IMG/VR virus record: IMGVR_UViG_3300045988_110202
Coordinates: 1-64,000 of that record
Origin: a virus
Reading direction: 5' to 3' (one strand)
Length of the DNA stretch: 64,000 nt
Notes under the pieces: model-generated
What the model was told of the DNA's origin: nothing
Seen by the model: the letters and a program-made list of their open reading frames with translations, nothing else
Databases searched by the model: none
Made by a program: the position numbers and the translations under genes
In this document: positions 10,442 through 56,249 of the stretch, in pieces
How positions within the stretch are numbered: the first letter of the stretch is position 1
Layout of the letters: each line of letters begins with the position of its first letter

Positions 10442-11902
10442 TTAGAACTCACGGTAATCTGCTGGCTCTGGTGTTCCAAGACTTTCATTATCTGTAAACT
10501 CTACTTCTTTATCTTCAGAAACAAAATCTTTCAACATCTTTGCAAGATCAACACCTGTAGATCCTTTAACACCATCTGATACCTGATTCACAACATTCAT
10601 AATATCTTTTGTTAATTTTGTTGTATTTCCTTCTCCATACATAGTAATGCTTCCTACATTACCTAATGGCGCAGCTGCATTTTTAACTGCTTCTGGGAAC
10701 ATCTGGCACATCATTTCTACGATAGAAGCTTTACCCATCTGTTTCATAGCTTCAGCTTTCTTCTCAATAGCTTCTGCTTCAGCAATACCTTTTGCTTTAA
10801 TCGCCTCAGCTTCTGCTACACCTTTTGCTCGGATACCTTCAGCTTCCTGTTCCATAGCATATTTTGTAGATTCAGCTTCTTTTTCTTTAGCATATTTATT
10901 TGCTTCTGACTCTTTCTGTCTCTTATATAAATCTGCATCTGCTTTCTGCTGAGAAGCATATCTTTCAGCCTCTGCCTGTTTCTTGATCTGTGCATCTAAT
11001 GTCTGCTCTGTTACCTCAACGTCTTTGCGTTTCAATTCAATTTCTTTTTCCTGACGCATAATATTAGCATCCGCAGTTACAACTTCAATTTCTTTACGTG
11101 ATTTTTCTTCCTGAATCTTGTATGCTGCATCTGCCTCAGCCTTCTTTGCCTTTGAAATCTTCTCAAGTTCAGATTTTTTAATCTCCAGATTATTATTCTT
11201 TTCTGCAATCGCTGTTTCTGACTCGACTCTTGCATCATTCGCTTCTTTTTCAGCCATTGCTTTTGCTTTTTCAATATCTCTTTCGCTTTCAGCTCTGGAA
11301 ATCGCAGCCTTCTTCTGAATTTTAACAACATTATCTACACCAAGATTTTCAATAACATCATTATCATCCATAAAATTCTGCACATTAAAACTGATAATAT
11401 CTAATCCCATTGCAGCAAGGTCTGGTTTTGCATTTTCTGTAACAAGCTGTGCGAATTTCTGACGATCGGAAACCATTTCTTCGAGACTCATCTTTCCAAC
11501 GATCTCTCGCATATTACCTTCAAGGACTTCTCTTGCGACCTGTCCAATATCGCCTACTGGCTTATTTAAGAAGTTTTCTGCTGCAAGTTTTAATCTTTCT
11601 GGATTACTGCTAACCTTTACATTGACCGCTGCATCTACATTGATATTGATATAATCTGCTGTAGGCACAGAACTTGATGTCTTAACATCAATTGGAATTA
11701 ACTCAAGATTAAGATGATCTGCTTTTTCAAAGAATGGGATTTTTAACCCTGCCTTACCAATTAATGTCTTAGGTGTCTTTCTAAGTCCAGAAATAATATA
11801 AGCTTTATCTGGACTTGCTTTGACATAACCGCTACCGATAATAGCTCCTACGCCACCTACCGCAATAACCACTGGTACCACTGTTCCAATTACTTCAATC
11901 AT
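10442..11902 (-). CDS. SPFH/band-7 flotillin-family protein (FloT/YqiK-like)
   Basis: 486 aa; N-terminal TM, SPFH-like domain, then a long Ala/Glu/Lys-rich coiled coil with 'AEAEAIKAKGIAEAEAIEKKAEAM' flotillin-type repeats. Confidence 0.75.
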   Translation of the reverse strand: MIEVIGTVVPVVIAVGGVGAIIGSGYVKASPDKAYIISGLRKTPKTLIGKAGLKIPFFEKADHLNLELIPIDVKTSSSVPTADYININVDAAVNVKVSSNPERLKLAAENFLNKPVGDIGQVAREVLEGNMREIVGKMSLEEMVSDRQKFAQLVTENAKPDLAAMGLDIISFNVQNFMDDNDVIENLGVDNVVKIQKKAAISRAESERDIEKAKAMAEKEANDARVESETAIAEKNNNLEIKKSELEKISKAKKAEADAAYKIQEEKSRKEIEVVTADANIMRQEKEIELKRKDVEVTEQTLDAQIKKQAEAERYASQQKADADLYKRQKESEANKYAKEKEAESTKYAMEQEAEGIRAKGVAEAEAIKAKGIAEAEAIEKKAEAMKQMGKASIVEMMCQMFPEAVKNAAAPLGNVGSITMYGEGNTTKLTKDIMNVVNQVSDGVKGSTGVDLAKMLKDFVSEDKEVEFTDNESLGTPEPADYREF

Positions 11903-11967
11903 AAATATCTCCTTTGTTATAAAATTTATTTATCACAACACCATATATAAATGTTATAATCTTGTTA

Positions 11968-12300
11968 TTAAATACACCCACCACATGAGTTAGGGCGAAA
12001 ATCCTCTTCATTGATTGCTTTGAAGATCTGACGCTGAATATCAATATCTGTTGTGATTTCATCTAACCAATATTTATTAGACTCAATCCATTCATCTTGC
12101 TTTAGTCCGTCATAATATGATTCCCATTCTACGTCCCAACCCTTAAAATACCATCGTTCATATCTCTTATACGTATTCATAGATTCTGTACGGAGATCTT
12201 CTGGAATTTTGTCTGTCACATCTTTTCCGTCAACATAAAGCTTCCATTCTCCAATACAAAGGGCTAGACCGTGACCTGTCCATTTTGCTTTAATTTCCAT
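11968..12300 (-). CDS. hypothetical protein with a C-terminal 'SCGGCI' tail
   Basis: 110-aa ORF directly downstream of the radical-SAM gene. Confidence 0.4.
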   Translation of the reverse strand: MEIKAKWTGHGLALCIGEWKLYVDGKDVTDKIPEDLRTESMNTYKRYERWYFKGWDVEWESYYDGLKQDEWIESNKYWLDEITTDIDIQRQIFKAINEEDFRPNSCGGCI

Positions 12301-12320
12301 AATTAATCATCCTCTTCAAT

Positions 12321-13283
12321 TTAATTCCCTAATGCAATTAATGAATTTCCACATGTAATTCTGTCTGCGTCTTCTTCTTTCGATGGAACAAATACAATTA
12401 CATCCCAACCGTCTTTTACAAGTGGTTGTTCAAATTTTTCATATACGTCAAAATCTGTTACAATCTCATATCCTTCGTCAACTGCTTCAACTGTTTCATG
12501 AATAGGAGTAATCTTGACAATGCATTTTTCCTTATCGAAATACTTGTTCATCAAATCTACGTCTAAATTACTTTTGGATGTAACAGCAAAATTCAATGTA
12601 TACTTACGCTTCTTTGGCATTGGCAACCAATCAATAATGCCTCCGATCTCTGTTAAAGATAATGAACATCCTCGAAACATTTCATTTCTTTGTTCTTCAT
12701 TAAGAGTATTGATAGAAAACTGAAGACCAAAGCCATCTTCTCCGCCATATTCGAATCCAGTTTTAACCCATTTATGTAAAAATTCTTTTAAATTATTATT
12801 TGCCTTTGGCATCATTGTAGAAATTACTGGATGATATGTGTTGAAATGTATATCACTGTCTGGATCTGCTAACATATGTGCAATCTGTTTAGCCGAAGCA
12901 ATTACATTTTGATTAAATGTAGGTTCTCCCATTCTTGCATAATGTACATTTAATCGTTCTCCATGTCTGATTCCTGATAAAGCAATTCCAGAAGTGATCT
13001 CCATCATTAACTCTGGCAACGATGCATTTCCTTTAAATCCAAGTTTAGGGCAATCACAGAAATTGCAATGCATCGGGCAACCTTTCTGCGACGAAACAGT
13101 CACAACTAATTTTTCTCTAATATCAACTGGTTTATGTTCAACTTTTTCAATTCGTTTATCATACCCAAGAAAATCTGCCTTAATGTTGTTTTCCTTGCCA
13201 TAATCACCAACGAATAAGTATTCTAATGTTAAATCTGTATCGGAGATAATTTCTCCTGTATGTGTGTCTGTAATCTGTCTCAT
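12321..13283 (-). CDS. radical SAM enzyme
   Basis: 320 aa; 'GCPMHCNFCDCP' = CxxxCxxC cluster motif; 'MGEPTFN' glycine-rich SAM-binding-like motif; no SPASM-type extra Cys cluster. Confidence 0.7.
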   Translation of the reverse strand: MRQITDTHTGEIISDTDLTLEYLFVGDYGKENNIKADFLGYDKRIEKVEHKPVDIREKLVVTVSSQKGCPMHCNFCDCPKLGFKGNASLPELMMEITSGIALSGIRHGERLNVHYARMGEPTFNQNVIASAKQIAHMLADPDSDIHFNTYHPVISTMMPKANNNLKEFLHKWVKTGFEYGGEDGFGLQFSINTLNEEQRNEMFRGCSLSLTEIGGIIDWLPMPKKRKYTLNFAVTSKSNLDVDLMNKYFDKEKCIVKITPIHETVEAVDEGYEIVTDFDVYEKFEQPLVKDGWDVIVFVPSKEEDADRITCGNSLIALGN

Positions 13284-13313
13284 TTTCTCTCCTTCCTTTA
13301 AATTACTGTTTTA

Positions 13314-13781
13314 TTAATCAAATAATCCATACCCAAAGTGCTGTCTCAGTTCATCATTCCAACTATTAATCGATTCAACTTTTGGCTCTTGGACAAGCTT
13401 ATATCGAAAATCTTCAGGCATAGACAGTGCGATAAAATTCATAATAAGTTTTGCACAATCTTTCCTTTCTTCAATATAATACACGCCATCTTCTTTATAG
13501 AAATCAACCTCTTTAAAACACCCAGAATTATTTAAAATTTCAAATGCTGTTTCGCGCATTTCTGATTCTTGATACTCTGTCCAAATCAGTCTCTCACTTC
13601 TATAACCAAGACCTAGACCCGTATAATCTTCATTGTAATTAAAAGCTACTCCTAGCTTTTTACAACTGTCTTTATACGCTTGTCGAATTTTATGAATATC
13701 ATAGTTACAATCAAATAAAAAACTTTCTGATATTTTATGCCCATCTTCCGACCAGTCGCCTAATTCTAATTTATAAATCAT
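13314..13781 (-). CDS. hypothetical protein
   Basis: 155-aa ORF. Confidence 0.4.
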   Translation of the reverse strand: MIYKLELGDWSEDGHKISESFLFDCNYDIHKIRQAYKDSCKKLGVAFNYNEDYTGLGLGYRSERLIWTEYQESEMRETAFEILNNSGCFKEVDFYKEDGVYYIEERKDCAKLIMNFIALSMPEDFRYKLVQEPKVESINSWNDELRQHFGYGLFD

Positions 13782-19700: not shown

Positions 19701-20195
19701 ACATCACTGCTACTAAAAACATATACAAACGTGTATATGCTAGATGATTCGCTACAATCTCTCGATTTATAGTTACTGCTTCAACGTATATGCTTTTGAT
19801 GATATAAATATCAATCTACTCACAAGTTCTTGTACACTCCACAGTCGTAAATTCCCGACTTAGCCATCGGTACACATCTGTAAATTCATATATTTGATTA
19901 GATACAGATTTCATCTAAATAGCTTTTCCTTTCCTAATATTTTACGTTTTGCTACTTGGTTTTCGTAGACTTATACCATTACTCAATTACAACCATCAAG
20001 GTTCTACCCTATAGTTAACAAGACTATTTCAACTCGCACTGGTCTATATTTCCTGTAATTTCAGTGGTTTTAAGTTACCAACTAGTGTTTTGGATTTTAA
20101 ACACCTTTGAGATTGTTTACTCACATTTGTTTACGTTTTTGGTTACATATGAAGCACTCCTATATTTAGTTGTATTTTTTGGAAAAATTTTCATG

Positions 20196-41006: not shown

Positions 41007-41603
41007 AGTTGTTTACCTCCTATCACTACGACCAGCTTTTCAAGGCTGGATTTTTCAGTTATAAGTTCATGAATGGATACAAATAACAGTGTCATGGACA
41101 GTGGCTTGTCTTTCGAGTGCATACCATGCAAGGCGTTAATTTGTACCCCATCATCGACCTATAAAAGAATTATGATATCTTAACCAGCGGATTACTGGTT
41201 GATTCATTGTTAATCTTTGGTTATGATGTTTTATTCAAAAAAACAGAGTATCAAAAATGATACCCTTAAGCTTAAAACTAATTTTTAATAGTTCCATACA
41301 TTTTTCTTTAGTTGTAAAATGTCAAAAACAAGTTATTAATCAAAAAAACTAACTAATAACGTCCGTCCCCCGTTATGTAACACTATCATGATCAACATAA
41401 TAGCTGGTAACAGCTCCTCCCTACGTTGTTCCTGGTTTGCGGTTTATTCCCTACATTATTACCACCGTTTTCTATGTTCTAAAACTTGATCCATCACGAT
41501 CAGTTATCTAGTCTTAGAACTGTATCCCGTAGGATGCCCCTTATGCCCTTGTCCGTACTACTTCCATATTAGAAGATTTTTTAATGAATACACTGTCAAG
41601 AAT

Positions 41604-41632
41604 TTGACAGATTTGAAAAGATTTGATATACT
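41604..41632 (+). promoter_or_regulatory. sigma-70 promoter (TTGACA - 17 nt - TATACT) with an overlapping inverted repeat CTGTCAA/TTGACAG (41593-41610)
   Basis: consensus -35 and near-consensus -10 with exact spacing; the inverted repeat overlaps the -35. Confidence 0.5.
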
Positions 41633-41650
41633 TTAAATTGTCTAGATTTA

Positions 41651-41710
41651 AGATATATTCATATCTTTTTGCCTGGTAAAAGTTGGTAGCTTTTATCAGG
41701 CTTTTTTATT
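41651..41710 (+). terminator. tandem intrinsic terminators
   Basis: AGATAT-attc-ATATCT plus T5 (41651-41671); then GCCTGGTAAAAG..CTTTTATCAGGC plus T6ATT (41671-41710). Confidence 0.45.
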
Positions 41711-41839
41711 CATTTTTCTATATCTTGCAACAAACAAGATATTCAAGTATCAAGTTAATTGAGATTTTAAAGCTCTGCGGATCAATCAAGATCGTTTGTT
41801 TTGCTACTCTTTTAACTTGTCTTTATTATATCATGACTT

Positions 41840-41857
41840 GTATTGTTATGTCAATAC
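41840..41857. promoter_or_regulatory. operator-like palindrome GTATTG-ttatgt-CAATAC (copy 1)
   Basis: lies within a 32-bp direct repeat (41836-41867 and 41963-41994). Confidence 0.55.
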
Positions 41858-41895
41858 TTTTTTAAATTTTTTGATTTACTTTTTTGAGTAAATCG

Positions 41896-41904
41896 TGATA
41901 TAAT
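41896..41904 (+). promoter_or_regulatory. extended -10 promoter element TGaTATAAT
   Basis: between the two operator copies, oriented toward the XRE gene at 42014. Confidence 0.35.
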
Positions 41905-41966
41905 AATATCAATCGGATTGGACTTGTATGTCTTATCCTTTTGACAGTTATAATTATACAATACTT

Positions 41967-41984
41967 GTATTGTTATGTCAATAC
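41967..41984. promoter_or_regulatory. operator-like palindrome GTATTG-ttatgt-CAATAC (copy 2)
   Basis: second copy of the direct repeat, 30 nt upstream of the XRE gene start. Confidence 0.55.
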
Positions 41985-42013
41985 TTTTTTAAATAATTTA
42001 GGAGTAATTTTAT

Positions 42014-42271
42014 ATGTATACTATTGTAAAAAATCAAGATGAACTTATCTTACAGATCAAGCATTATATGCTAGATAATAAATTAAAGCAAAAAGACATA
42101 GTAGTTGCAACGGGATTATCTAAACAGACTATAAGTAATCTGTTAAACGGTAGAAGCAAAAATATGACACTAGACACTCTTTTTATGCTTTTAAATGCTT
42201 TAGATTGTAATCTATCTATATCTTTAAATAAGAAAGACAATACAGATAATACAAGCAAAGAAGATCAATAA
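42014..42271 (+). CDS. XRE-family HTH repressor (cI/Cro-like)
   Basis: 85 aa; 'LKQKDIVVATGLSKQTISNLLNGRSKNMTLDTLFMLLNAL' HTH; RBS AGGAGT upstream. Confidence 0.65.
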   Translation: MYTIVKNQDELILQIKHYMLDNKLKQKDIVVATGLSKQTISNLLNGRSKNMTLDTLFMLLNALDCNLSISLNKKDNTDNTSKEDQ

Positions 42272-42289
42272 TAATGTGTACTATATCTT

Positions 42290-43110
42290 TATACGCCGTA
42301 TGCGCCTATAAGCACTTATACAACCGTTTAAATGCTTTAGAATAAACGTATGCAAAGATCATCTATATAATATAGAAGAAACACGCATATAACAGTATTA
42401 TTAATATAATATATGAGTATATCTGTTATAGTATAGTGTATAACACTTGCCTATGCCGTAGGTGTTTTATTGTATAGTGGTATGTATATGTAGTATATTT
42501 ATATATTATGTTATAAATGTATGTTGTATATAATTGTATGTTATACTATTATATACACTTATATAGTTGTCGTAGTTTGGATCTAGTTTTGCATGGTAAT
42601 ATAAGATATACTATTGTGTTATGTTTATATATGTATTTGTTTAATTTTGATAGCTTGATCTTGTATAATTGATATATATTAATTTGTTTAGTTTGTATCT
42701 TAGTTTGTGTAGTTATTGCAAGTGCTGGAAGTCTGCCAAACATCGAACACTTGTTTGTTTAGTAGTGTAACATGGTTTGGCTGTGCTGTCAAGTGATATA
42801 GATTATAGGTATAGGTTGGTGGTTTGGTATAGAGTGAAGTTATAGGTGGTAGAATGTTAACTTGTATAGAGTTTAGTGGTTAACAATAATATAATGTGAT
42901 CTGTTTTGATTGTTTGTGATTTTGTTAGATAGAGAAAATATTGTTTTGCTGGTGTGGTGTTGTGTGAAGTTTTATTTTTCGTTGATGGTATGGATAGACT
43001 ATCCAACACATTATACAAAAGTGTCGGATAATAGACAAGTGTTGTGTAAATAGTCGCAAAGTAGTAGTCCTATTTTTGAATACTACGACACGTCGTAAAC
43101 CATATTATAT
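42290..43110. other. non-coding block strongly depleted of C on the plus strand (G+T+A rich, many TG/TA alternations)
   Basis: direct counts, e.g. 42781-42840 has 20 G and 3 C; no ORF. Confidence 0.6.
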
Positions 43111-43201
43111 TATACAGCATCTGATACACTATCATGTAGTTTTGAATACTATGTGGAAATAGTTGGAAATTATCTGCACTCCTGATCCTGATCTGCCTAC
43201 A

Positions 43202-43261
43202 AATTATTTACAATTATTTACAAAATCTATTTGATAAAATTATAGTATTTCAAATAGATTT
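43202..43261. repeat. ori-like element: tandem AATTATTTAC iterons (43202-43221) plus a perfect 12-bp inverted repeat AAATCTATTTGA/TCAAATAGATTT (43223-43234 and 43250-43261)
   Basis: sits exactly at the C-depleted to G-depleted switch. Confidence 0.45.
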
Positions 43262-43289
43262 TTACAATTTTAACAATGTAATTTTTATA

Positions 43290-45250
43290 CCACCAGATCA
43301 AAAAGCGGGGGGTAGGTTTACATTTACAAAATTGGAAACTATTGCCATTTTAGACAGACGTGTTCAATCACCGTGTCAACAAAATTTTTTCGACCTTGCA
43401 ACAAAATCCCAACTTTCCCAAGCAATTTCCTACACTTTCCTAGATAAACACTTTCTGCTAATCGAAAACATGTCTTCGGAGGCGTCGTCGAGCGAATTGT
43501 TTATTTTACTACTCTTTTTTCGACGCTCTCAGAACCCCTTCTTTCAAAAATCGCACTTTTCCAAAAAATCAGCCCCATTTTCCCCTTTATTTTCCCCAAT
43601 TCTCTCGACGACACGTTTTTGTTTTGCACCATTTCATGCAGGTTTTACCCTCAAAAACCTAAGCAATTTCTTATATTTTTCACATCAAATTTTACACAGT
43701 TTTACACAATTTCTCGAAACATGATTTTTAGCATTTCTCGAAGCACGATTTTGACCATCAGCACCCTCACAAATACCAGTAAATCCCTACACAAATTACC
43801 TCTCAACCTTTGCACAAAATTACTCCCAGAAAAATGCATAAATTCGATCAATCATGTCTAAAACTGATTTTATCTCTACAATCAATCGCACAAAATCATC
43901 GTCACTTTCTCTTTATAATCACTACATCTTTAACTATTTTGCCTACGAAATTGATGACACCACATATAGAAGGGTCACAACAAAGATATGCACAAAAATA
44001 TATGAATTGCACAAACTATATACAAACACTAAAGGAAATAACAACTACCTCTTCTCTCTTATCCCAAATAAACAAGCAATTTATTGCGCAGTTTAGGAGA
44101 GACAGGATAAGCGTCAGCGTTCCTTCTCGACATTGCTACCGCAGGTAATATCACTTACACGCTTCCATTTCTCAGACAATCATGTTATACTTCCATTGAG
44201 GGATTAGGCAACCCTCGGCATCTATGCCAAAAACAGACACAAATAGATGATATTAAGGTATTCAAGTTGGTACCCCAGATAATGTATCTGCAAATGCATT
44301 ATCAGAATTTATGTTCAGGGAAATTTCTCTGGGCATATTTTTTTTACAATTAACAATCTCTCATTGCAACAAAGTATCTTATATGATATAATCGTGTATA
44401 TGGCATTGAACAAGACATTCAATGTATTCCATGTATCAATAAAAACAATCCCTCGCAAGGCAAAACATTTTAATAAGATGGAATCCCTTGAACTATCAAC
44501 CAGATTTGTGACAGATAGTGAACACAAGAAATCTATCAATCAGATATTTAACCTTGTAAGCAGGGATTATTTTTATGCAAAAATTTATCTTTCATTCAGT
44601 CCTATAAAAAATCGCACTCTACAAATCATAAATCCATTTTACCTGTCTACCTTAACAACTCTCCATAACATACCACAAAATCCATATTTGACGGATATAC
44701 TCTTCTAAACATTGAGAATCACATATAATCAACACCAACCATTATGTCAGATAATCAGCACATATCATCTTGCTACAGATTCCAAAATTAGACATTTGCC
44801 ACAACCTTTCTTAGATCCACGGTAAAAATATCTCTTCATTATACCCTTTAAAAAATGTACTCTGAGAGAGCAAATTTCAATTCTACTATCTTACCCTAAC
44901 AAGTTATCGCCAGAACATATAAAATGGAAATTAGCATCTGATTTCTCGTCTAAACATTGCAAAAGTACCCTAAGTAATTTCACACATAACCTGGCTCTCG
45001 CACACTTATATCACATAGGGGGTACACTTTACATTGAAAAGACCATTATCTGCGCCAGTATATATTGTACGTGAAAAAGTACAAGGATATTTCCTATGAA
45101 AAAATGCACTTGAGAGATCATAAATCAATTTAACACCTCTCCTCTACCAACAATACAAATTTACATATAGAATGGAAATTCACAACGAAAAGCTCTTCTA
45201 AATGTACAGAATCCAGTATAAAGAAAATTACATTCTACCAAGATAAAAAT
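43290..45250. other. non-coding block of about 2 kb strongly depleted of G on the plus strand (C+A+T rich)
   Basis: e.g. 43381-43440 has 3 G and 19 C; the ORFs here are composition artifacts. Confidence 0.6.
44367..44395 (+). promoter_or_regulatory. sigma-70 promoter (TTGCAA - 17 nt - TATAAT) preceded by nested hairpins and a T8 run (44272-44330)
   Basis: -35 and -10 hexamers with 17-nt spacing; upstream inverted repeat GATAATG..CATTATC then T8. Confidence 0.4.
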
Positions 45251-45311
45251 ATGACTAACTTCCCTCATTGCACCCGTTGACAAGGTGCAAAAAGTATGTT
45301 AAAATACCAAT

Positions 45312-45719
45312 ATGCTTAAAAAGAAAATGAAGAAAGAAAGGATATGTACCGTGAAGAATGCAAATGATTTTACATATAATCGCAATGAAGAGACAAAATT
45401 CTCTTTCAATTTGCCATCAGATATGATATTCCAGATAATCAATCATGGTAATCTGTGTAAAGATTCTTCCAGAGAATATATGTTGGCAAATACCAGAAAA
45501 GAAATTACAATGAAGATTCATGATTACTGGAAAGATCATTCTGAGATATTATATCCAAGATCTTCAAGATCATATATGTGGTTGTACTACAATGAGATAG
45601 CAAGAAAAAGATTACGGACATTGCAGGAAGAAAATATAAAACAATTATCATATATGATCTACATGATGAACAAAACAAAGAAAGGAGAAATGAGCGTCAG
45701 CGAACAGAGGAAATGGTGA
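45312..45719 (+). CDS. hypothetical basic protein
   Basis: 135-aa ORF; first plus-strand gene of the right arm. Confidence 0.4.
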   Translation: MLKKKMKKERICTVKNANDFTYNRNEETKFSFNLPSDMIFQIINHGNLCKDSSREYMLANTRKEITMKIHDYWKDHSEILYPRSSRSYMWLYYNEIARKRLRTLQEENIKQLSYMIYMMNKTKKGEMSVSEQRKW

Positions 45720-48095: not shown

Positions 48096-49419
48096 TAGAA
48101 TGGCAAACACAGGATATGTACCAATTTTAACAGTGCATCAAAATCAAAATATCGAATTGGCAGATAAAGTAACCGATCAGATTGATGAGATGTTTCGAGA
48201 TGTTAATGTATTGATTACTCAGAATGAAGTAAATCAAGTAATAACATCTCTTAGTATGTTGATAAAAGTAAATGATACTTCATTCTACTTCCCAACAATT
48301 TTAAAGTTTCGAAATTATGATGACGATAATCCATTAAGAGATAAGATTAAATTATCTTCAAGAGATATTGAATATTTATCTCAGATTAAAGTTTTTTATG
48401 GCGAAGTTTTTGAAAGTTTACAAACATTAAAAAATCATAAATGTAAATTTATCAAGTGTACATTCGAATTTCCTTGTACTATACGAGTTTCTAATTTGAA
48501 TTTTACAGTATCATTAAAGACGTCTTTTTTTGATAAAAATAATGACTATATGTTAATCACATCTGACTTAATTGATGCAAGAATCATTCGTACAGATCGT
48601 GTGCGTATTACAAAACATATAGAATACACACTGCAACGCCTTGACGATATTGATCAAAGATATGGTGTTTGGAAATCATTATCAAAACTAAAAAAAGACA
48701 TAAGTAAAGATGAGAAATTGTTTGTTTCGGTAAAAAATATCGTTGAGACACTACGTGTATATGAAAATAAATTTAATTGCGAACCATATTCATTGCAACT
48801 TAGCATTGATGAATTTTCAACAAGAGGCGTGAATATTTCTTTTACATATAAAAAATTTATTATAAGTAAAATTCGTTTAGAAAATCATATTGTAGATATT
48901 GAAGAATTTAGGGATTCAATTTATGAGGCATGGGAAATTTTCAAAGATAGATTTTTATATCTAATGGAAAACAATATATATAGTGTTTTTGAAGAACTCG
49001 TGAATTATTTGAATAAATCGGCAAACAATTTGTGGACAGCAAATATTGTGGTCGAGCCATTTATGATTTATTTGCATGTTGAAGTAAAGCATAACGTGCT
49101 CCATGACTGTATTTACGATATCAAAACACAGAAACCATATTTGCCATGGTACGAAATTGATACGCAGATTCAGAATATAAGCAATGAAATGACTTTTCAT
49201 GCAGACATTCCTTTGATTTCTAGTGATTTGTTTAATCCAGATGGGTTATTGAAAATTACAAATACTTTTTTATATCAATGGAAACAACCTCTACCTAATA
49301 CCAATTGGAAGCAATACGTTGCCAATGAACTGTCAAATTGTATAATCGAAAAAATTAACACATCTGATGAGATGCCAATCCGATTCATCGAAAAGAATAC
49401 AAAGGAGAGTTATGAATGA
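48088..49419 (+). CDS. hypothetical protein (443 aa), translationally coupled to the RNAP-like gene
   Basis: stop TGA overlaps the ATG of 49416 (ATGA). Confidence 0.5.
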   Translation: MISRMANTGYVPILTVHQNQNIELADKVTDQIDEMFRDVNVLITQNEVNQVITSLSMLIKVNDTSFYFPTILKFRNYDDDNPLRDKIKLSSRDIEYLSQIKVFYGEVFESLQTLKNHKCKFIKCTFEFPCTIRVSNLNFTVSLKTSFFDKNNDYMLITSDLIDARIIRTDRVRITKHIEYTLQRLDDIDQRYGVWKSLSKLKKDISKDEKLFVSVKNIVETLRVYENKFNCEPYSLQLSIDEFSTRGVNISFTYKKFIISKIRLENHIVDIEEFRDSIYEAWEIFKDRFLYLMENNIYSVFEELVNYLNKSANNLWTANIVVEPFMIYLHVEVKHNVLHDCIYDIKTQKPYLPWYEIDTQIQNISNEMTFHADIPLISSDLFNPDGLLKITNTFLYQWKQPLPNTNWKQYVANELSNCIIEKINTSDEMPIRFIEKNTKESYE

Positions 49420-52301
49420 CAAAAAATATTAATACTAATCCATTGCAAATCCCAAGCATTGATGCAAAAGATTTGTATATTTCAAATCATCAAATTTCTG
49501 AGAACGAAGAGAGTGCGAAAGGGTACTCTCTTCTAAGAAAGACGGATCATGGATTTAAACCGAATTTGAAAAAATATATTAACACATATGACTTCAGCCT
49601 AGATTTAATTGAATTAAGAAACTATGTTGCCAGTAACGGGAAAAATTTTGGAATTGGTAAAAAGGTTTTTTCATTTTTCGATGAACATGACAATACCAAA
49701 GAATACAGTAATATGGTAATAAATGTTACATTTAACTATAGCGTAAAAGAATTTAACAGAATCAAAGTTGATACATATATGAAATTTGGATACGAATTAT
49801 CTAAAAATGAATTCAAAAATTGTATTTGTAAAGATACTTCAACTGGAGAAGTCATAGGTGTCAGGACAGATCGATGGATAGATAAAAGGCTCATGTGTAA
49901 TAATTTGCCTCCACAATTTTGTTATAAAGAAGAAGTTGATGAAGAAACTTCTGTTCATAAAATTATGTATATTTTAAAAACATCTACTAATAAAACCATT
50001 GTTGACGTAGCCACTTTAAGAAATATTTTATATAAAGAGGGATTTAAATGTGATGGTAGAAATTATGTAAGATTTAAAAGATCGTCAGGAAGTAGCCGTG
50101 TTGGCAAGTGTTTGTTTATTGAAAAGAATTTATCAAAACATATGCAAAAATGGGGACTGTGTGGACTTGAAGTAAAAGATGGAGAAGAAATTGATCTCGC
50201 AGCCCTTGAAGCATATATTGCTCTTCCAACAAGTAGTATCATTGATGTTATTGAAATCGATCCAAAATCAATTTTAATCATTGGTGATTATGAAAGTGTT
50301 TTTAATGATACTGTGATTGAGACAACGATTGGCAATGACGGTTGGCTTCATACAGATGAAAAAACTATTGAAATACATAACTCAATTTGGGATGGACAGA
50401 GTTTGATTGATAAATCTGTTATGGAGGAATATTCTAGTTACGGAATGCTTCTTTTAAGAAATAAATTTTTTAAATCATGTTGTTTCAATACAAATATTCA
50501 AAAATGGTTTCATGATAATAATATTACGGAAATTTCACAATTAAATGGTTTTACATTCGCAACCGATGTATCTGAAATTAAGATGATCACGACTCCAAAC
50601 AGCGTAAAATATCTGAAATTTGGATCAATGGAACAATGGCTAAACAATTTACCAAGTATGTTCGGAGTTGTAAAACATGAGAAAAAAACACATTTTTTTG
50701 ACGGACAAATGGTTCAGTGTCATTATCAGTTATTAAATACATTACAATTATCAAAAAATGACGTAGAAGAATTTTTACAGCCATCTTTTGATTATATGAA
50801 CAAACTTAACACCGATATTGATGTCTTTAAATATCATATTAAATGTCAGGCATTGAAAGATGAAAACCCAAAAAATATGAACGACATTATTTATACTATG
50901 TTAAATATATGCCCAGATTTCGAACGTACGGAAATATTTTTGAATTTCAAAAGATCGTTGATAAAGGCATACCGCAAAAATTTAAAAAAGGGACATGTAC
51001 TTGTCAATGGTAATTATTCTGTATTATTTGGAAATCCGATCGAAATGTTGAAATCTTCTATTGGTGAATTTAATCCAACTATTTCGACTTTAAACAAAGG
51101 AGAAATATATAATACTAGATTTTTAAACGATCAGGAATTGTTGTGTTGTAGAAGTCCACATGTCACAATTGGCAATATTCTTGTAGCAAAGAATACTCGT
51201 GTTAATGAAATTGATACCTATTTTAATCTAACTGATGAAATTGTTTGCTTAAATTCAATTAACGATAATATTTTAGAACGGTTAAGCGGATGCGATTTTG
51301 ATTCAGATCAAATGTTGATCACAGATGATCAGATTTTGTTGAATGCAGCCAAAAAAAATTATTCTGTATTCAAAGTTCCAACATCGAATGTTCATGCAAG
51401 AAAAGCTAAACGATATTTTACACCAGAAGATCAGGCAGACCTTGACATTCGTACAAGTAATAATTTGATTGGAGAAATTATTAATCTATCACAACAATTA
51501 AATAGTCAGCTGTGGGATAAAGCTAACAATAGTGAAAAAAGTATTCAAGAATTATATGATACTGACAATGTTTTTCGAAGACTGTATTTTGATATTTGCC
51601 AGTTGGATGTTATGTCTTGTATTGAAATTGATAAAGCAAAAAAAGAATTTGAAATTGATTCCAAAGCTGAGATTAAGCGTATTCAAAACAGGCACATTAA
51701 ATTAGATAAAGAAACTGGATTAAAACAACAAGCTCATTTTCTTGGAGTAATTTCTCAGATAAAAGGGTACGAAGACAAGAAAAATGTAGTATATAAATTA
51801 TGTAAAACCACTATGGATTACCTTGAGGAAACGATTGATGATTTTAGTCCAGCAAGACGTAAAAATAAAAAGATATTACTTTCAAGTTTATTCAAACCTA
51901 AAAATTTTAACAAAGAGTTAATTATAAAACCACAAATAACTTTAATTTTGAAACAACTTGATACATTGTATACGTCTTTGATTCAAATTATGAAGTTAGA
52001 TAATTATACTTATTCTTATAATGTAAAATGTAAAATGATTCAAAATAAGAAATTTGAAACATATGAATTGTTAAAAAAATATACAATTAATCAACATACT
52101 ATGTATCGATTACTAAAATATATAGACAACGATAAAATTACAGCAAAAAAATATTTATTTGAATTTTTGTTTTATTATTCAGATTTAATCAAAGAATATA
52201 AAAATAAACTTTGTGTGCGTAACGTAAATCTACGTGTTCAAAATGAAACTAATGAATATGATGTTTCCTTATATGGTATGAGATTTAAGAAAGAATTTTA
52301 G
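49416..52301 (+). CDS. putative non-canonical RNA polymerase (YonO-like, multisubunit-RNAP beta-prime DPBB catalytic motif)
   Basis: 961 aa; 'RSPHVTIGNILVA...ILERLSGCDFDSDQMLITDD' aligns with the universal beta-prime 'RHPSLHRLGIQAF...[21 protein letters not shown]'; RBS AAAGGAG. Confidence 0.55.
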   Translation: MTKNINTNPLQIPSIDAKDLYISNHQISENEESAKGYSLLRKTDHGFKPNLKKYINTYDFSLDLIELRNYVASNGKNFGIGKKVFSFFDEHDNTKEYSNMVINVTFNYSVKEFNRIKVDTYMKFGYELSKNEFKNCICKDTSTGEVIGVRTDRWIDKRLMCNNLPPQFCYKEEVDEETSVHKIMYILKTSTNKTIVDVATLRNILYKEGFKCDGRNYVRFKRSSGSSRVGKCLFIEKNLSKHMQKWGLCGLEVKDGEEIDLAALEAYIALPTSSIIDVIEIDPKSILIIGDYESVFNDTVIETTIGNDGWLHTDEKTIEIHNSIWDGQSLIDKSVMEEYSSYGMLLLRNKFFKSCCFNTNIQKWFHDNNITEISQLNGFTFATDVSEIKMITTPNSVKYLKFGSMEQWLNNLPSMFGVVKHEKKTHFFDGQMVQCHYQLLNTLQLSKNDVEEFLQPSFDYMNKLNTDIDVFKYHIKCQALKDENPKNMNDIIYTMLNICPDFERTEIFLNFKRSLIKAYRKNLKKGHVLVNGNYSVLFGNPIEMLKSSIGEFNPTISTLNKGEIYNTRFLNDQELLCCRSPHVTIGNILVAKNTRVNEIDTYFNLTDEIVCLNSINDNILERLSGCDFDSDQMLITDDQILLNAAKKNYSVFKVPTSNVHARKAKRYFTPEDQADLDIRTSNNLIGEIINLSQQLNSQLWDKANNSEKSIQELYDTDNVFRRLYFDICQLDVMSCIEIDKAKKEFEIDSKAEIKRIQNRHIKLDKETGLKQQAHFLGVISQIKGYEDKKNVVYKLCKTTMDYLEETIDDFSPARRKNKKILLSSLFKPKNFNKELIIKPQITLILKQLDTLYTSLIQIMKLDNYTYSYNVKCKMIQNKKFETYELLKKYTINQHTMYRLLKYIDNDKITAKKYLFEFLFYYSDLIKEYKNKLCVRNVNLRVQNETNEYDVSLYGMRFKKEF

Positions 52302-54440: not shown

Positions 54441-54533
54441 TGTACGGGTGGCAGAGCTGGTTTAATGCGCAGGATTGCTAATCCTGTATACGTACGAATA
54501 TGCGTATCCTGGGGTCGTAGCCCAGTCCGTACG
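54441..54533 (+). tRNA. tRNA-Ser (GCU), class II
   Basis: acceptor GTACGGG/TCCGTAC, anticodon arm CAGGA-TTGCTAA-TCCTG, variable-arm hairpin ATACG..CGTAT, T-arm CTGGG-GTCGTAG-CCCAG, discriminator G. Confidence 0.6.
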
Positions 54534-54539
54534 CTAAAT

Positions 54540-54614
54540 CGCACCATCGTCTAAATGGTTTTAGGACACATCCCTTTCACGGATGCAATACGAGTTCGAC
54601 TCTCGTTGGTGTGA
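54540..54614 (+). tRNA. tRNA-Glu (UUC)
   Basis: acceptor CGCACCA/TGGTGTG (one G-U), D GTCT/GGAC, anticodon arm CATCC-CTTTCAC-GGATG, T-arm ACGAG-TTCGACT-CTCGT. Confidence 0.6.
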
Positions 54615-54654
54615 TGTTTGTCCTACAATGTTCTTCGGACTTGTGGGCCAATAT

Positions 54655-54738
54655 CCCTGTTTATACTGCTAAGGAGACAGGCAAAACTGTAAATTTTGCG
54701 GCTTCGGTCACGAGTGGGTTCGATTCCCTCAACAGGGA
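54655..54738 (+). tRNA. tRNA-like, Tyr (GUA)-type class II candidate with an irregular D region
   Basis: acceptor CCCTGTT/AACAGGG perfect, anticodon arm CAAAA-CTGTAAA-TTTTG, T-loop TTCGATT; 4 nt instead of 2 between acceptor and D-stem; U-U mismatch in the T-stem. Confidence 0.4.
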
Positions 54739-54952
54739 TGATTAGGTTAGTAACTATACGATAGATTAACCAAAAAATATGCGAACACCCTGATGGTTGG
54801 TGGATATTGGAATGTATACCTCTTCTGATATTCTGATGGAGTTCATCACTTCAGTTCGCCCTAGAAAAGCAATACTTACACACTGTTGCTTTTTAGAAAT
54901 ATGTATTGTCTCGCCAGTGTGTACGTATGAGAGGCAAATACATATTCGTTAT

Positions 54953-55026
54953 TGACATGTAGCTCAATTGGACAGAGCACAACGCTACGGACGTTGGTGT
55001 TGCAGGTTCGATTCCTGTCGTGTCAG
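54953..55026 (+). tRNA. tRNA-Arg (ACG)
   Basis: acceptor TGACATG/CGTGTCA, D GCTC-AATTGGACA-GAGC, anticodon arm CAACG-CTACGGA-CGTTG, T-arm GCAGG-TTCGATT-CCTGT. Confidence 0.65.
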
Positions 55027-55029
55027 TTT

Positions 55030-55113
55030 TCCTATATACCTCAGTTGGCAGAGGGTCATCACAGCAAGGATAACATTAGATGAAAGTCGCTGGTTCGAAT
55101 CCAGCTGTAGGAA
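55030..55113 (+). tRNA. tRNA-like gene with an 18-nt anticodon loop (11-nt expansion); identity unclear
   Basis: acceptor TCCTATA/TGTAGGA, D CCTC-AGTTGGCA-GAGG, anticodon stem TCATC/GATGA perfect but loop ACAGCAAGGATAACATTA, T-arm GCTGG-TTCGAAT-CCAGC perfect. Confidence 0.45.
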
Positions 55114-55119
55114 TTATAT

Positions 55120-55192
55120 TCTCGTATAGCTCAACTGGTAGAGCGGATGGCTGTTAACCATCATGTCGGAGGTTCAAATCCTTCTACGAGAG
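55120..55192 (+). tRNA. tRNA-Asn (GUU)
   Basis: acceptor TCTCGTA/TACGAGA perfect, D GCTC-AACTGGTA-GAGC, anticodon arm GATGG-CTGTTAA-CCATC, T-loop TTCAAAT. Confidence 0.7.
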
Positions 55193-55782
55193 TTTGTATT
55201 TTAAACATAAGCAACTCGGTTATAAAACTCAATGCCATGAGTCCGAGAGATATTCTAGGCACATATGTCGAATTGGAGAGATACATTGTACGGATACGTT
55301 CTTTGTGTCTCTTTTTATGTCGGAGTGATCTGATATGGACAAGAGAGAAACTCTCAAGCAAATGGATATTGTGCAGCATTTTGGTCTGGTTAACGCACAG
55401 AACTTTTCGCTACAATAATAGACGCTCCTGTGGAGAATAATCCACTTCAATGCGTACTCTGGCAGGTACGTAAAAGGTGGAAAAGCCAAATAATGTAGTT
55501 TGATGTGAATCTGTTCAAAAGACAGTGTATAAGAAAAGTCGCTGGTATGTCGCTCAAGTCAGTTAAGGGTAAGTTCAAATTTATAAAAACATTCTAAAAC
55601 TTAATTCTGAACGGTGGGTTGACATTGCATGTATTGATCATGTCATAGAACTGGTTTTTTAGACTTAGGTAAGAAGTTAGAGGTCGCTCCTCGAAGCTCA
55701 GACTTATCTACTATGTTGCAGAATAAACTGTTCCACAAATGACTGTAAGGTGAAGACCTGCTTTAAAATTAAAATACATTTA

Positions 55783-55854
55783 AGGGGTATCGCCAAGTGG
55801 TAAGGCACAGCACTTTGACTGCTGTATTCACTGGTTCAAATCCAGTTATCCCTG
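55783..55854 (+). tRNA. tRNA-Gln (UUG)
   Basis: acceptor AGGGGTA/TATCCCT, anticodon arm CAGCA-CTTTGAC-TGCTG, T-arm ACTGG-TTCAAAT-CCAGT. Confidence 0.6.
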
Positions 55855-55855
55855 T

Positions 55856-55930
55856 CGCAGAATGGAGAAGTTTGGTTATCTCGTCAGGTTCATGCCCTGA
55901 AGATCGGTGGTTCAAATCCACCTTCTGCTA
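55856..55930 (+). tRNA. tRNA-Met (CAU) with a C1-U72 mismatch at the top of the acceptor stem
   Basis: acceptor CGCAGAA/TTCTGCT (6 bp plus a 1-72 mismatch), D GAGA-AGTTTGGTTA-TCTC, anticodon arm TCAGG-TTCATGC-CCTGA, T-arm GGTGG-TTCAAAT-CCACC. Confidence 0.55.
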
Positions 55931-56002
55931 TTTTTCTAGGTTTCATTTTATTTTTCATATAGTATCCTTTATTGGTAGGGACATTTATGTCCTTACCAAT
56001 AT

Positions 56003-56078
56003 TGCACAGTGGAAAAGTTGGTAAATTCGCTCGTTCCATTTGGTTCTGGAGACGTAGGTTCAAATCCTACCTGTGCAA
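56003..56078 (+). tRNA. tRNA-like gene with a non-canonical anticodon arm (best fold gives an 8-nt loop TTTGGTTC)
   Basis: acceptor TGCACAG/CTGTGCA perfect, D-loop AGTTGGTAA, T-arm GTAGG-TTCAAAT-CCTAC perfect; no standard 5-bp/7-nt anticodon arm can be drawn. Confidence 0.4.
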
Positions 56079-56082
56079 TCAA

Positions 56083-56110
56083 AGAGCTGTTTGGTGGTCA
56101 GTTCTTTTTT
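56083..56110 (+). terminator. rho-independent terminator
   Basis: AGAGCTG-tttggtggt-CAGTTCT followed by T6. Confidence 0.5.
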
Positions 56111-56177
56111 CAACAAAGATTTTTTCTCATTGTTAGCATATAGTGGATGGATATTAATTCATCCACTACTCCTTTCT

Positions 56178-56249
56178 GCTTCTATAGCTTAACGGAAAAG
56201 CAAAGCCCTTCTAAGACTTAGAGTGTAGGTTCGAATCCTACTAGAAGCT
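56178..56249 (+). tRNA. tRNA-Arg (UCU)
   Basis: acceptor GCTTCTA/TAGAAGC perfect, D GCTT-AACGGAA-AAGC, anticodon loop CTTCTAA, T-arm GTAGG-TTCGAAT-CCTAC. Confidence 0.6.

Follow-up and report, generated by a model that had tools for sequence, protein, structure and literature searches.

Layout and strand composition of the locus

The DNA analysed here (the window) is the whole stretch of 64,000 nt from position 1 of the IMG/VR virus record IMGVR_UViG_3300045988_110202, and is AT-rich (33% G+C). The element in question is a non-coding region of ~3 kb (42.3-45.3 kb) that lies between the two gene arms of the window and is probably a site of packaging initiation. The left arm consists of minus-strand genes up to ~41.1 kb and the right arm of plus-strand genes from 45312. 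Between the arms are located a small helix-turn-helix (HTH) gene of the Cro/CI type (42014-42271, + strand; Pfam HTH_26, E = 3e-11; PHROG HTH and repressor families) and then the ~3 kb without credible genes; the HTH gene reads into the C-poor block. The gene for a YonO-type single-subunit RNA polymerase (49416-52301, + strand, 961-aa product; Pfam RdRP PF05183, E = 5e-7) is found 4-7 kb downstream of the region on the same strand, and the same order is seen in SPbeta c2 (SPBc2) and in the SPbeta-like phage BUCT082.

On the plus strand, the C-poor block (42440-43000) contains 126 G and 35 C, a GC skew (G-C)/(G+C) of +0.57, which is the maximum of the window (binomial p = 4e-20 against the window-wide G/(G+C) of 0.427); every other 561-nt window in the 64 kb has a skew of +0.33 or less. 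The skewed non-coding blocks described in the initial annotation, which was made from the letters alone, are thus real, and their limits were revised as follows. The C-depleted block, placed at 42290-43110, was recovered for 42440-43000, but its first 150 nt (42290-42440) are nearly neutral. The G-depleted block, described as a single block of ~2 kb, is non-uniform: the interval 43290-45250 (233 G, 442 C, skew -0.31) comprises two sub-blocks, at 43330-44030 (-0.44) and 44560-45010 (-0.43), with a segment of ordinary skew between them (44100-44560, -0.12, not different from the window average, p = 0.75). The abrupt switch at 43.1-43.3 kb is a true change of sign, but it runs through a neutral core (~43010-43300).

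When set against the variance of the whole window, a check that had been suggested together with these claims, the C-poor block stood out, but the G-poor blocks, which belong to the lowest 1.3% of windows, did not go beyond the extremes of minus-strand coding sequence (e.g. -0.61 at 34701). They are non-coding and lie ~8 standard deviations (sd) below the adjacent right arm (mean skew +0.11, sd 0.064, minimum -0.04). The mean skew of the left arm is -0.27 (sd 0.09), and the skew of the blocks is opposite in sign to that of the flanking arms, as originally noted.

The C-poor arm (42440-43010) is composed of 44.5% T, 27% A, 22% G and 6.8% C on the plus strand, and carries a hypervariable indel patch at 42860-42980. 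Its TG/TA-rich texture had been recognised correctly: the highest enrichment in C-poor blocks is that of TATA, ATAT and GTATA-type words. A terminator-like hairpin (42442-42466, + strand) is located ~170 nt after the HTH gene, with a consensus folding z of -6.4 on the plus strand and, in 21 sequences, 2 compensatory pairs and 9 pairs with breaks.

The neutral core (43000-43306, skew ~0) is dense in short repeats and hairpins: it contains three copies of TTTTGAATACTA, a tandem AATTATTTAC, a perfect 13-nt inverted repeat (43222-43234 / 43250-43262), iteron-like short repeats and an AT-rich stretch. At 43000-43032, a hairpin with a 10-bp stem is present, of which the stem is kept and the 11-nt loop is reverse-complemented in four relatives (L009, L019, L023 and L025). 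In the alignment of 21 relatives, the ~80 nt after 43032 occur as two unrelated alleles, both of which keep a hairpin (43050-43130) between the conserved AATAGTCG and CGACACG. This alignment supports a conserved hairpin despite a non-significant single-sequence DNA fold (42990-43160, z = -1.0); small numbers of sequences and a tiny shuffle variance account for the very large folding z-scores obtained at 43020 and 42840. The inverted loop and the two-allele hairpin may be specificity modules of a packaging site.

The G-poor side opens with a motif (GGGGGGTAGGTTTACATTT, 43307-43325, + strand) and continues as G-poor arm 1 (43330-44030, + strand; 33% A, 32% T, 25% C, 10% G), which is essentially structure-free as the plus strand. 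The residual G is concentrated in TCGA/TTCGA: eight such words, mostly TTYTCGAM, are present within 43330-44100 (771 nt), a TCGA density of 10.4 per kb that is the window maximum (1.94 per kb window-wide). TCGA is 5-8-fold in excess in the G-poor blocks of the relatives L024, L110, L026, L027 and L043 and ~2.4-fold in that of SPbeta (L036); the G-poor blocks of Enterocloster phages show no TCGA excess. Mirror-image arms were ruled out by the differing word content, TATA/ATAT/GTATA-type words in the C-poor arm and A and T tracts, C runs and TTCGA in the G-poor arm. No consistent 10-11-bp periodicity indicative of phased DNA bending was detected; it was seen in L027 alone, where it comes from a tandem repeat.

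Arm 1 is followed by a neutral, near-invariant island (44030-44560, + strand; 94-100% column conservation in the 21 relatives) with a terminator inside it (44310-44345, + strand), and then by G-poor arm 2 (44560-45010, + strand), which is partly paralogous to 45092-45221 (repeats D1, D3 and D6). A second motif copy (GGGGGTACACTTTACAT, 45018-45034, + strand) is located 294 nt before the first open reading frame (ORF) of the right arm. The right boundary of the non-coding region is formed by a strong sigma70-type promoter, TTGACA-17-TAAAAT with TG (45277-45305, + strand), which drives the right arm from 45312 and with it the operon that leads to the polymerase gene.

Conservation of the architecture and of a motif

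The non-coding stretch is 82-92% identical in 24 IMG/VR relatives, even where the polymerase protein is 67-81% identical. The best-kept parts are the neutral island (44030-44720), positions 42650-42800 and part of the core (43190-43280), and the least conserved are the skewed blocks. In L009, L019 and L025, the segment 43289-44036 has been swapped for unrelated sequence that is again motif-first and G-poor (-0.57 to -0.65).

A blastn search of 41600-45400 against 50,697 phage records gave no match, and only the ~17-nt motif was common to the SPbeta yonR-yonP intergenic region. The order of C-poor block, neutral core (~250-570 nt), motif and G-poor block recurs upstream of the YonO-type polymerase gene in dissimilar relatives, with skews of the C-poor and G-poor block, respectively, of +0.60 and -0.73 in L024, +0.70 and -0.66 in L027 (MT835469.1), +0.75 and -0.85 in the Enterocloster phage CB473P1, +0.90 (last 300 nt of the record) and -0.91 (nt 300-600) in PMBT24, +0.65 (record end) and -0.63 (record start) in BUCT082, and +0.38 and -0.72 in SPBc2; both blocks are weaker in L026. 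The skew is therefore kept in relatives, including those without nucleotide similarity, which was the conservation that the initial annotation had proposed to look for. The genes that run into the G-poor block of the Enterocloster phages and of BUCT082 are on the minus strand. Because the orientation of the flanking genes differs among lineages, the skew belongs to the element and not to its neighbours.

Substitutions were polarised in 21 close relatives by majority rule, which is a crude procedure. Loss rates (C>T versus G>A) were about equal in both blocks, and gains of the depleted base were rare, for transitions and transversions alike (in the G-poor block, A>C 0.21 versus T>G 0.06). The C-poor blocks of Enterocloster phages are 42-45% G and depleted of T, in genomes of ~30% G+C. 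Together with the cassette swap described above, the substitution spectrum and the Enterocloster composition argue for a maintained composition and not a mutational scar. The comparison of sequences thus points to strand composition, not sequence, as the conserved feature.

Every G-poor block examined across lineages opens with the motif GGGGG-N3-4-TTTACAT. Its forms are GGGGGGTAGGTTTACAT (at 43307) and GGGGGTACACTTTACAT (at 45018) in the window, GGGGGTATATTTACAT in SPbeta and BUCT082, GGGGTGTATTTACAT in L043, GGGGGATAGTTTACAT in L027 and GGGGGTACTTTCAGACA in the Enterocloster phages; counterparts were found in L024, L026, L027, L043, BUCT082, SPBc2, CB473P1 and PMBT24. In the 64 kb, only two matches were obtained with at most one mismatch, both of them in the region and on the plus strand. 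A second copy is also present in L027, where it precedes the first ORF by 186 nt. No copy is present near the SPbeta YonO late transcription start or upstream of the late-like genes of the window, which rules out the motif as a general YonO promoter.

IMG/VR was scanned with the exact 16-mer, which gave 87 loci, 76 of them with enough downstream sequence. The skew was below -0.4 in the 400 nt after the motif at 43/76 loci, most of which had an upstream window above +0.45. For 18 non-redundant low-GC loci, the mean skew was ~+0.1 to +0.24 out to -700, +0.3 to +0.39 at -500 to -250, ~0 at -200 to 0, -0.4 to -0.47 at +100 to +300 and ~-0.36 to -0.39 up to +400, so that in the mean profile the skewed blocks end sharply at the motif. 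Chance matches of the 16-mer in high-GC sequence show no skew and served as an internal control.

Virion DNA ends and the probable packaging-initiation region

The position of DNA ends relative to this architecture was compared in cultured relatives and in one metagenome contig. In PMBT24, a single significant PhageTerm peak was called as the pac site and set as position 1 of the record (PMC11035940); this position directly follows the C-less block, 252 nt before the motif. The SPbeta pac site was mapped with restriction enzymes on virion DNA between yonR and yonP (PMC8270828; Fink and Zahler 1982, as cited). Read mapping (PhageTerm) of four SPbeta-like isolates placed a shared 'genome opening point' in the yonR-yonP interval (Kohm et al., bioRxiv 10.1101/2021.11.22.469490). 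After it, coverage is raised over a sharply delimited block of ~250 bp, equal in size in all isolates (bioRxiv 10.1101/2021.11.22.469490). SPbeta DNA is packaged towards yonP and yonO (PMC8270828; bioRxiv 10.1101/2021.11.22.469490). Position 1 of BUCT082 corresponds to position 3001 of the SPBc2 sequence (L036), in the yonR-yonP spacer just after the C-poor stretch, and the SPBc2 motif is found at L036 3199, 200 nt after this opening point; the published ~250-bp coverage block matches the distance from opening point to motif.

The contig L043, from a Clostridia-binned metagenome-assembled genome (CAKZZS010000005.1), starts at positions 1-24 with a remnant of an Illumina adapter (TTCAGACGTGTGCTCTTCCGATCT) joined to phage DNA, ~275 nt upstream of the motif and G-poor block. 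The contig was not trimmed of adapters, and the join, beside which a perfect 20-bp palindrome (ATGTCAAATATATTTGACAT) is found, marks where DNA truly ended in that sample. Taken together, the evidence from PMBT24, SPbeta, BUCT082 and L043 indicates a physical DNA end at the boundary between C-poor block and core, with the packaged DNA on the motif side.

The late operon of SPbeta is transcribed by YonO, a DNA-dependent RNA polymerase with a single subunit (PMC5467207). The polymerase of the window aligns with YonO over 472 aa (22% identity, E = 4e-8; the acidic catalytic DxDxD stretch is part of the alignment), and its gene is the syntenic anchor to the yonR-pac-yonP-yonO arrangement of SPbeta. 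The window shares with an SPbeta-type pac both its position relative to the YonO operon and its signature of a motif followed by a G-poor block, a signature that was defined in the present analysis and not taken from a published definition of pac. Position, synteny, motif and composition together make 42.3-45.3 kb the counterpart of the SPbeta pac region. We therefore consider it probable (roughly 0.7) that the 3-kb non-coding stretch is the packaging-initiation region (pac, or 'genome opening point') of an SPbeta-supergroup gut phage of Lachnospiraceae with a genome of 140-170 kb. The phage would be a member of the broader set of phages with a YonO-type RNA polymerase, of which Bacillus phage SPbeta is the type member. 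Relatives of the window polymerase are binned with Lachnospiraceae and Clostridia genomes, and the IMG/VR contigs of the window clade are 80-170 kb long. DNA packaging had no place in the initial annotation; it is the reading to which the comparative and published evidence points.

By analogy with the cultured relatives, the terminase would recognise the core and the motif and would make its cut where the core begins on the left, ~200-280 nt before the motif at 43307. This distance predicts a cut at ~43030-43110 in the window. DNA would then be threaded rightwards, so that the core, the motif and the G-poor arm would be the first to enter the capsid. In such a three-part packaging signal, the C-poor arm would be the non-packaged flank and the G-poor arm the packaged flank, in which the cluster of TTCGA words would be a candidate array of binding sites. 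The skew itself might give the site its polarity and keep both strands free of G:C-containing palindromes and hairpins.

Several observations weigh against this assignment. The terminase genes lie outside the window, and the position of the cut in the window is extrapolated from relatives whose polymerases are 22-46% identical. The published pac calls (the one-strand PhageTerm peak of PMBT24 and the coverage plots) could reflect short direct terminal repeats or a nick instead; the ~250-bp coverage block would fit a short terminal repeat that extends from the opening point to the motif. At the predicted cut, none of the IMG/VR or metagenome contigs of the window clade has an end, and contig ends are spread over the C-poor block. 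Among 26 whole metagenome contigs that hold the core, the left end lies at most 900 nt upstream in 14 and the right end at most 900 nt downstream in one. Contig ends were judged to be weak evidence of a terminus in this clade, since low complexity or variability fits a scatter over the C-poor block equally well. In three higher-GC relatives (L039-L041), no flip of the skew was found within 10 kb upstream of the polymerase gene. Finally, the different word texture of the arms and the lack of helical phasing give no sign that the terminase reads the arms.

The closest known system is SPbeta pac itself, which, like the region in the window, precedes the operon of the YonO-type polymerase (yonP-yonO in SPbeta) in the same orientation, adjoins a small HTH gene and is composed of a C-poor block, a neutral core, a GGGGGTA..TTTACAT motif and a G-poor block. 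The two share no nucleotide similarity beyond the motif. They also differ in size (3 kb in the window and 0.95 kb in SPbeta), and in the window the motif is present twice and a conserved island is inserted, whereas the C-poor arm of SPbeta is short and weak (+0.38) and yonR is on the opposite strand. The SPbeta papers state that the site does not resemble the pac of SPP1 and do not mention the skew or the motif (PMC8270828; bioRxiv 10.1101/2021.11.22.469490).

A formal likeness to SPP1 and lambda is present in the layout, since the predicted cut of the window is flanked by two arms and TTCGA words cluster on the packaged side only. In pacL-pacC-pacR of SPP1 and cosQ-cosN-cosB of lambda, the cut site lies between a non-packaged arm and a packaged arm that contains repeated binding words of the small terminase subunit, and these arms measure tens of bp to ~100 bp and are defined by their sequence. 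In the phages described here, strand composition defines the arms, whose length is 0.4-2 kb and whose sequence is replaceable.

T7 offers another parallel: a non-coding, G-poor array of CCTAAAG short repeats (SRL; L131 160-350, skew -0.57) directly follows its 160-bp terminal repeat. At the T7 concatemer junction, DNA maturation is coupled to transcription by the polymerase of the phage. Unlike the region in the window, T7 has its array across the junction in direct, not inverse, orientation, lacks a C-poor block, has exact terminal repeats and uses a polymerase of an unrelated family; no repeated heptamer was found in the window region. The T7 terminal repeat also holds ATAGGGGGTAC (L131 30-40), which is identical to window positions 45014-45024 (motif copy 2 and its left flank); this 11-nt identity may be due to chance or may be a shared feature of maturation sites. 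With the GC-skew switches of bacterial chromosomes, the region has in common an abrupt change of sign at one point, but it extends over 0.4-2 kb and not over replichores, its amplitude is 3-5 times larger, its sign is that of a terminus, it has no DnaA boxes and its pattern is tied to a specific motif.

Any single role of the skew is much less certain than the packaging region as such. Arms of a packaging signal that act at the DNA level are ranked as most likely, followed by a G-poor transcript, a polarity signal for the processing of DNA ends and, last, a feature or scar of replication. A bolder proposal, speculative and decidedly unlikely, is that the packaging signal of a large phage group is coded partly by strand composition, with arms that act via single strands or transcripts: for example, transcription of the G-poor arm by the phage's lid-less YonO-type polymerase or by the host polymerase could mark the site or open it to the terminase, as pausing of the T7 polymerase does at the T7 concatemer junction. 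If true, this would link the co-inheritance of the YonO-type polymerase family with the pac architecture. The group concerned may include SPbeta-like Bacillus phages, the Enterocloster 'Kielvirus' phages and many uncultured gut phages of Lachnospiraceae (100-170 kb).

A packaging site in a known phage group would not be new in kind; what seems new is the composition-defined architecture and the deeply conserved motif. No mention of the skew or the motif was found in the packaging literature on SPbeta and PMBT24 or by full-text search. If motif and skew mark the start of packaging, the DNA end and the direction of packaging could be predicted from sequence only for many uncultured gut phages, across lineages that share no nucleotide similarity. 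SPbeta pac has been located but not dissected, and the motif, the core and the two arms are targets for mutagenesis in a genetically tractable phage. A cis-acting signal that is kept by strand composition while its sequence is freely replaceable would be unusual among phage packaging sites.

Alternative explanations and neighbouring features

It is possible, though rather unlikely, that the G-poor arm is chiefly the template of a rightward, untranslated RNA, C-rich, G-poor and structure-free, which extends from near the motif to the terminator at 44310-44345. The skew would then serve the RNA and the packaging site would merely be adjacent, which we consider unlikely to the same degree. Such a transcript could be a leader or attenuator for the polymerase operon (e.g. 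a Rho-loading tract), or a protein-binding or decoy RNA. Untranslated and unstructured RNA with more C than G is the established signature of Rho utilisation sites. Of the properties of a Rho-type leader (at least 80 nt, C far in excess of G, little structure), composition and structure were found on the plus strand: the consensus minimum free energy is ~0 to -5 kcal/mol per 120 nt over 43500-44030 and over most of the G-poor blocks. Transcription is suggested by the signals that close the G-poor block, plus-strand terminators in the window and L024 and bidirectional hairpins in CB473P1, PMBT24 and BUCT082. In SPbeta, the small RNA (sRNA) candidate ncr1052 (2221800-2221982, yonP strand; PMC2965217) maps to L036 3132-3314, where it spans the motif and reaches the G-poor block, and its RNA would be G-poor; the mapping was made via the yonP coordinate implied by the tables of PMC4448311 and agrees with the YonO primer pair. 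In 168 coordinates, this mapping places the SPbeta opening point at ~2,221,669, the motif at ~2,221,867-883 and the end of the G-poor block at ~2,222,238.

The support for ncr1052 is very low in its source table, however, and no host-type promoter is conserved at the motif in any lineage: a check of the -35/-10 spacing by eye failed in each of them, and the motif was rejected as a host promoter. A transcript also leaves the C-poor arm unexplained, where the sole strand signal is the plus-strand hairpin. In the Enterocloster phages and BUCT082, the G-poor block is met head-on by minus-strand genes and so cannot be a leader there. In the window, both arms have promoters of their own, which indicates that the skewed stretch is not the leader of either arm, at least from host-type promoters. 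Rfam 15 gave no match at E up to 1 in 41400-45500 or in the equivalent regions of six relatives, and the fold of the island has no compensatory pairs in 21 sequences, so that a known RNA family or a structured RNA in the island was ruled out. The suggestion of two long sense transcripts rich in G and U was not borne out: the signals of the right-hand block (the terminator at 44310-44345 and the promoters, all on the plus strand) point the other way, and the hairpin after the HTH gene is the only known transcription signal of the left-hand block.

The island holds a sigma70-like promoter (TTGCAA-17-TATAAT, 44364-44392, + strand), and a candidate sRNA of ~175 nt (44400-44575, + strand) is found after it, which would start near 44400 and ends in a long closing stem and a U run. 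Across 21 relatives, in which the flanks vary, its identity is 98-100%. A leaderless ORF of 102 aa could be read from an ATG at 44400, but it is broken in 5/20 relatives.

The two arms have also been considered as polarity signals for the processing of the DNA ends made by the packaging cut, which is improbable. The strand that ends 3' would be G-rich and C-poor on both sides of the cut, as with the Chi-type stops of RecBCD/AddAB, an equally doubtful comparison; the same orientation would give structure-free 3' tails for the loading of RecA or for annealing at recircularisation, and this too is doubtful. The geometry agrees, as the skew has, to the left and to the right of the mapped cut, exactly the sign that this orientation requires, the C-poor arm of the window is GT-rich, and recombination functions have been annotated (a Sak4-like protein and an exonuclease in TR-TP1, Gam and RecA in PMBT24). 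The Chi sequence of B. subtilis is AGCGG. In its active orientation it is absent from the arms of SPBc2 and BUCT082, by which Chi sites flanking the cut were rejected, although the Chi of the window's host may differ. The arms differ in word content, and protection of the left-hand end is without obvious value because headful packaging takes the right-hand end only.

A replication feature (origin, terminus or rolling-circle start), or a passive mutational scar of an exposed single strand, is a very improbable source of the skew. The iteron-like repeats and AT-rich stretch of the core would suit an origin, as would a weak match to a replication initiator O-like protein 2.7 kb to the right of the skewed region (PHROG 678, E = 0.001), but nothing ties the short repeats of the core to an initiator. 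A bidirectional origin of the DnaA type was excluded, since the sign changes in the opposite direction (from + to -) and no DnaA box (TTATCCACA, at most one mismatch) is present between 40595 and 46336. The origin-related strand asymmetry considered in the initial annotation thus fails on its terminus-like sign and on the missing DnaA boxes, and the switch coincides with a virion DNA end in cultured relatives. As for a scar, the C-poor strand of the window is enriched in T and G, as would be expected if C and A were deaminated on an exposed strand. The losses C>T and G>A are about equal, however, and the asymmetry is in the gains, which include transversions; deamination cannot yield the G-rich, T-depleted C-poor blocks of the Enterocloster phages, and the blocks stop sharply at the motif. 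A simple deamination scar was rejected on the substitution spectrum and the Enterocloster base composition. Selection against motifs that contain C or G, another of the earlier suggestions, is possible and cannot be separated from the skew itself.

That the blocks are decayed or recoded protein-coding genes with a composition left from former coding can practically be dismissed: all three plus-strand frames are open for long stretches across the G-poor side and ORF 44400-44708 is intact in 15/20 relatives, but simultaneous openness of the frames points to compositional depletion of stop codons, no stop-codon type is selectively tolerated, frameshifting indels are common, no family matches were found and the coding strands of the phage's real genes are G-rich, not G-poor. 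A strand with few G-containing stop codons would be expected to have all three frames open. In the alignment of 20 relatives, indels of 1-2 nt or stops interrupt most of the ORFs of 43332-44148 in the majority of sequences (10/20 keep ORF 43619-43861 intact); the ORFs of the region had no match among Pfam and PHROGs families, and their variable columns are not in excess at the third codon position. For ORF 44400-44708, the best kept, variable columns by codon position number 12, 19 and 21, with no third-position excess; the control genes were misaligned in this comparison, so that the codon-position test is without a valid positive control and the case is carried by the indel and stop pattern. 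The statements that the region has no credible ORFs and that its skew is not a by-product of coding were upheld by these results. Tiny ORFs (30-50 aa, one of 131 aa) have been annotated over the C-less and G-less blocks of PMBT24 (L030 158-2057, L031 2262-3597) and CB473P1 (L029 1367-1762), and are probably spurious artefacts of stop-codon depletion.

Among the neighbouring genes, the HTH gene of the window gave no BLASTP alignment with SPbeta YonR and was rejected as a yonR homologue. L024, L027 and L026 carry a small plus-strand regulator gene at the matching position, and the SPbeta pac region adjoins the HTH gene yonR, on the opposite strand to the arrangement in the window. Beside the HTH gene, two perfect sigma70 promoters (TTGACA-17/18-TATAAT, 41825-41999, - strand) drive the left arm, each within a 37-nt direct repeat (41836-41872 and 41963-41999); the promoter pair and its repeats look like an operator-promoter switch. 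The gene that precedes the polymerase gene has no similarity to its BUCT082 counterpart.

Just downstream of the polymerase gene, a ROOL RNA (55191-55779, 308.8 bits) is present within an array of 10 tRNA genes (54442-56249), followed downstream by an ORF for a yonJ-like metallophosphoesterase. The same place is occupied in L027 by a GOLLD RNA and tRNAs (11884-13677), and in SPbeta by a GC-rich non-coding stretch of 1.7 kb that includes the start site of YonO transcription. Transcription by the phage polymerase may begin with large non-coding RNAs. In the left arm, a RAGATH-18 RNA motif was detected at 19773-19845 (- strand, 73.6 bits). An Rfam tRNA match extends over 139 nt at 9484-9622 (- strand, 44.6 bits), for which ARAGORN makes no call and which may be an interrupted tRNA gene.

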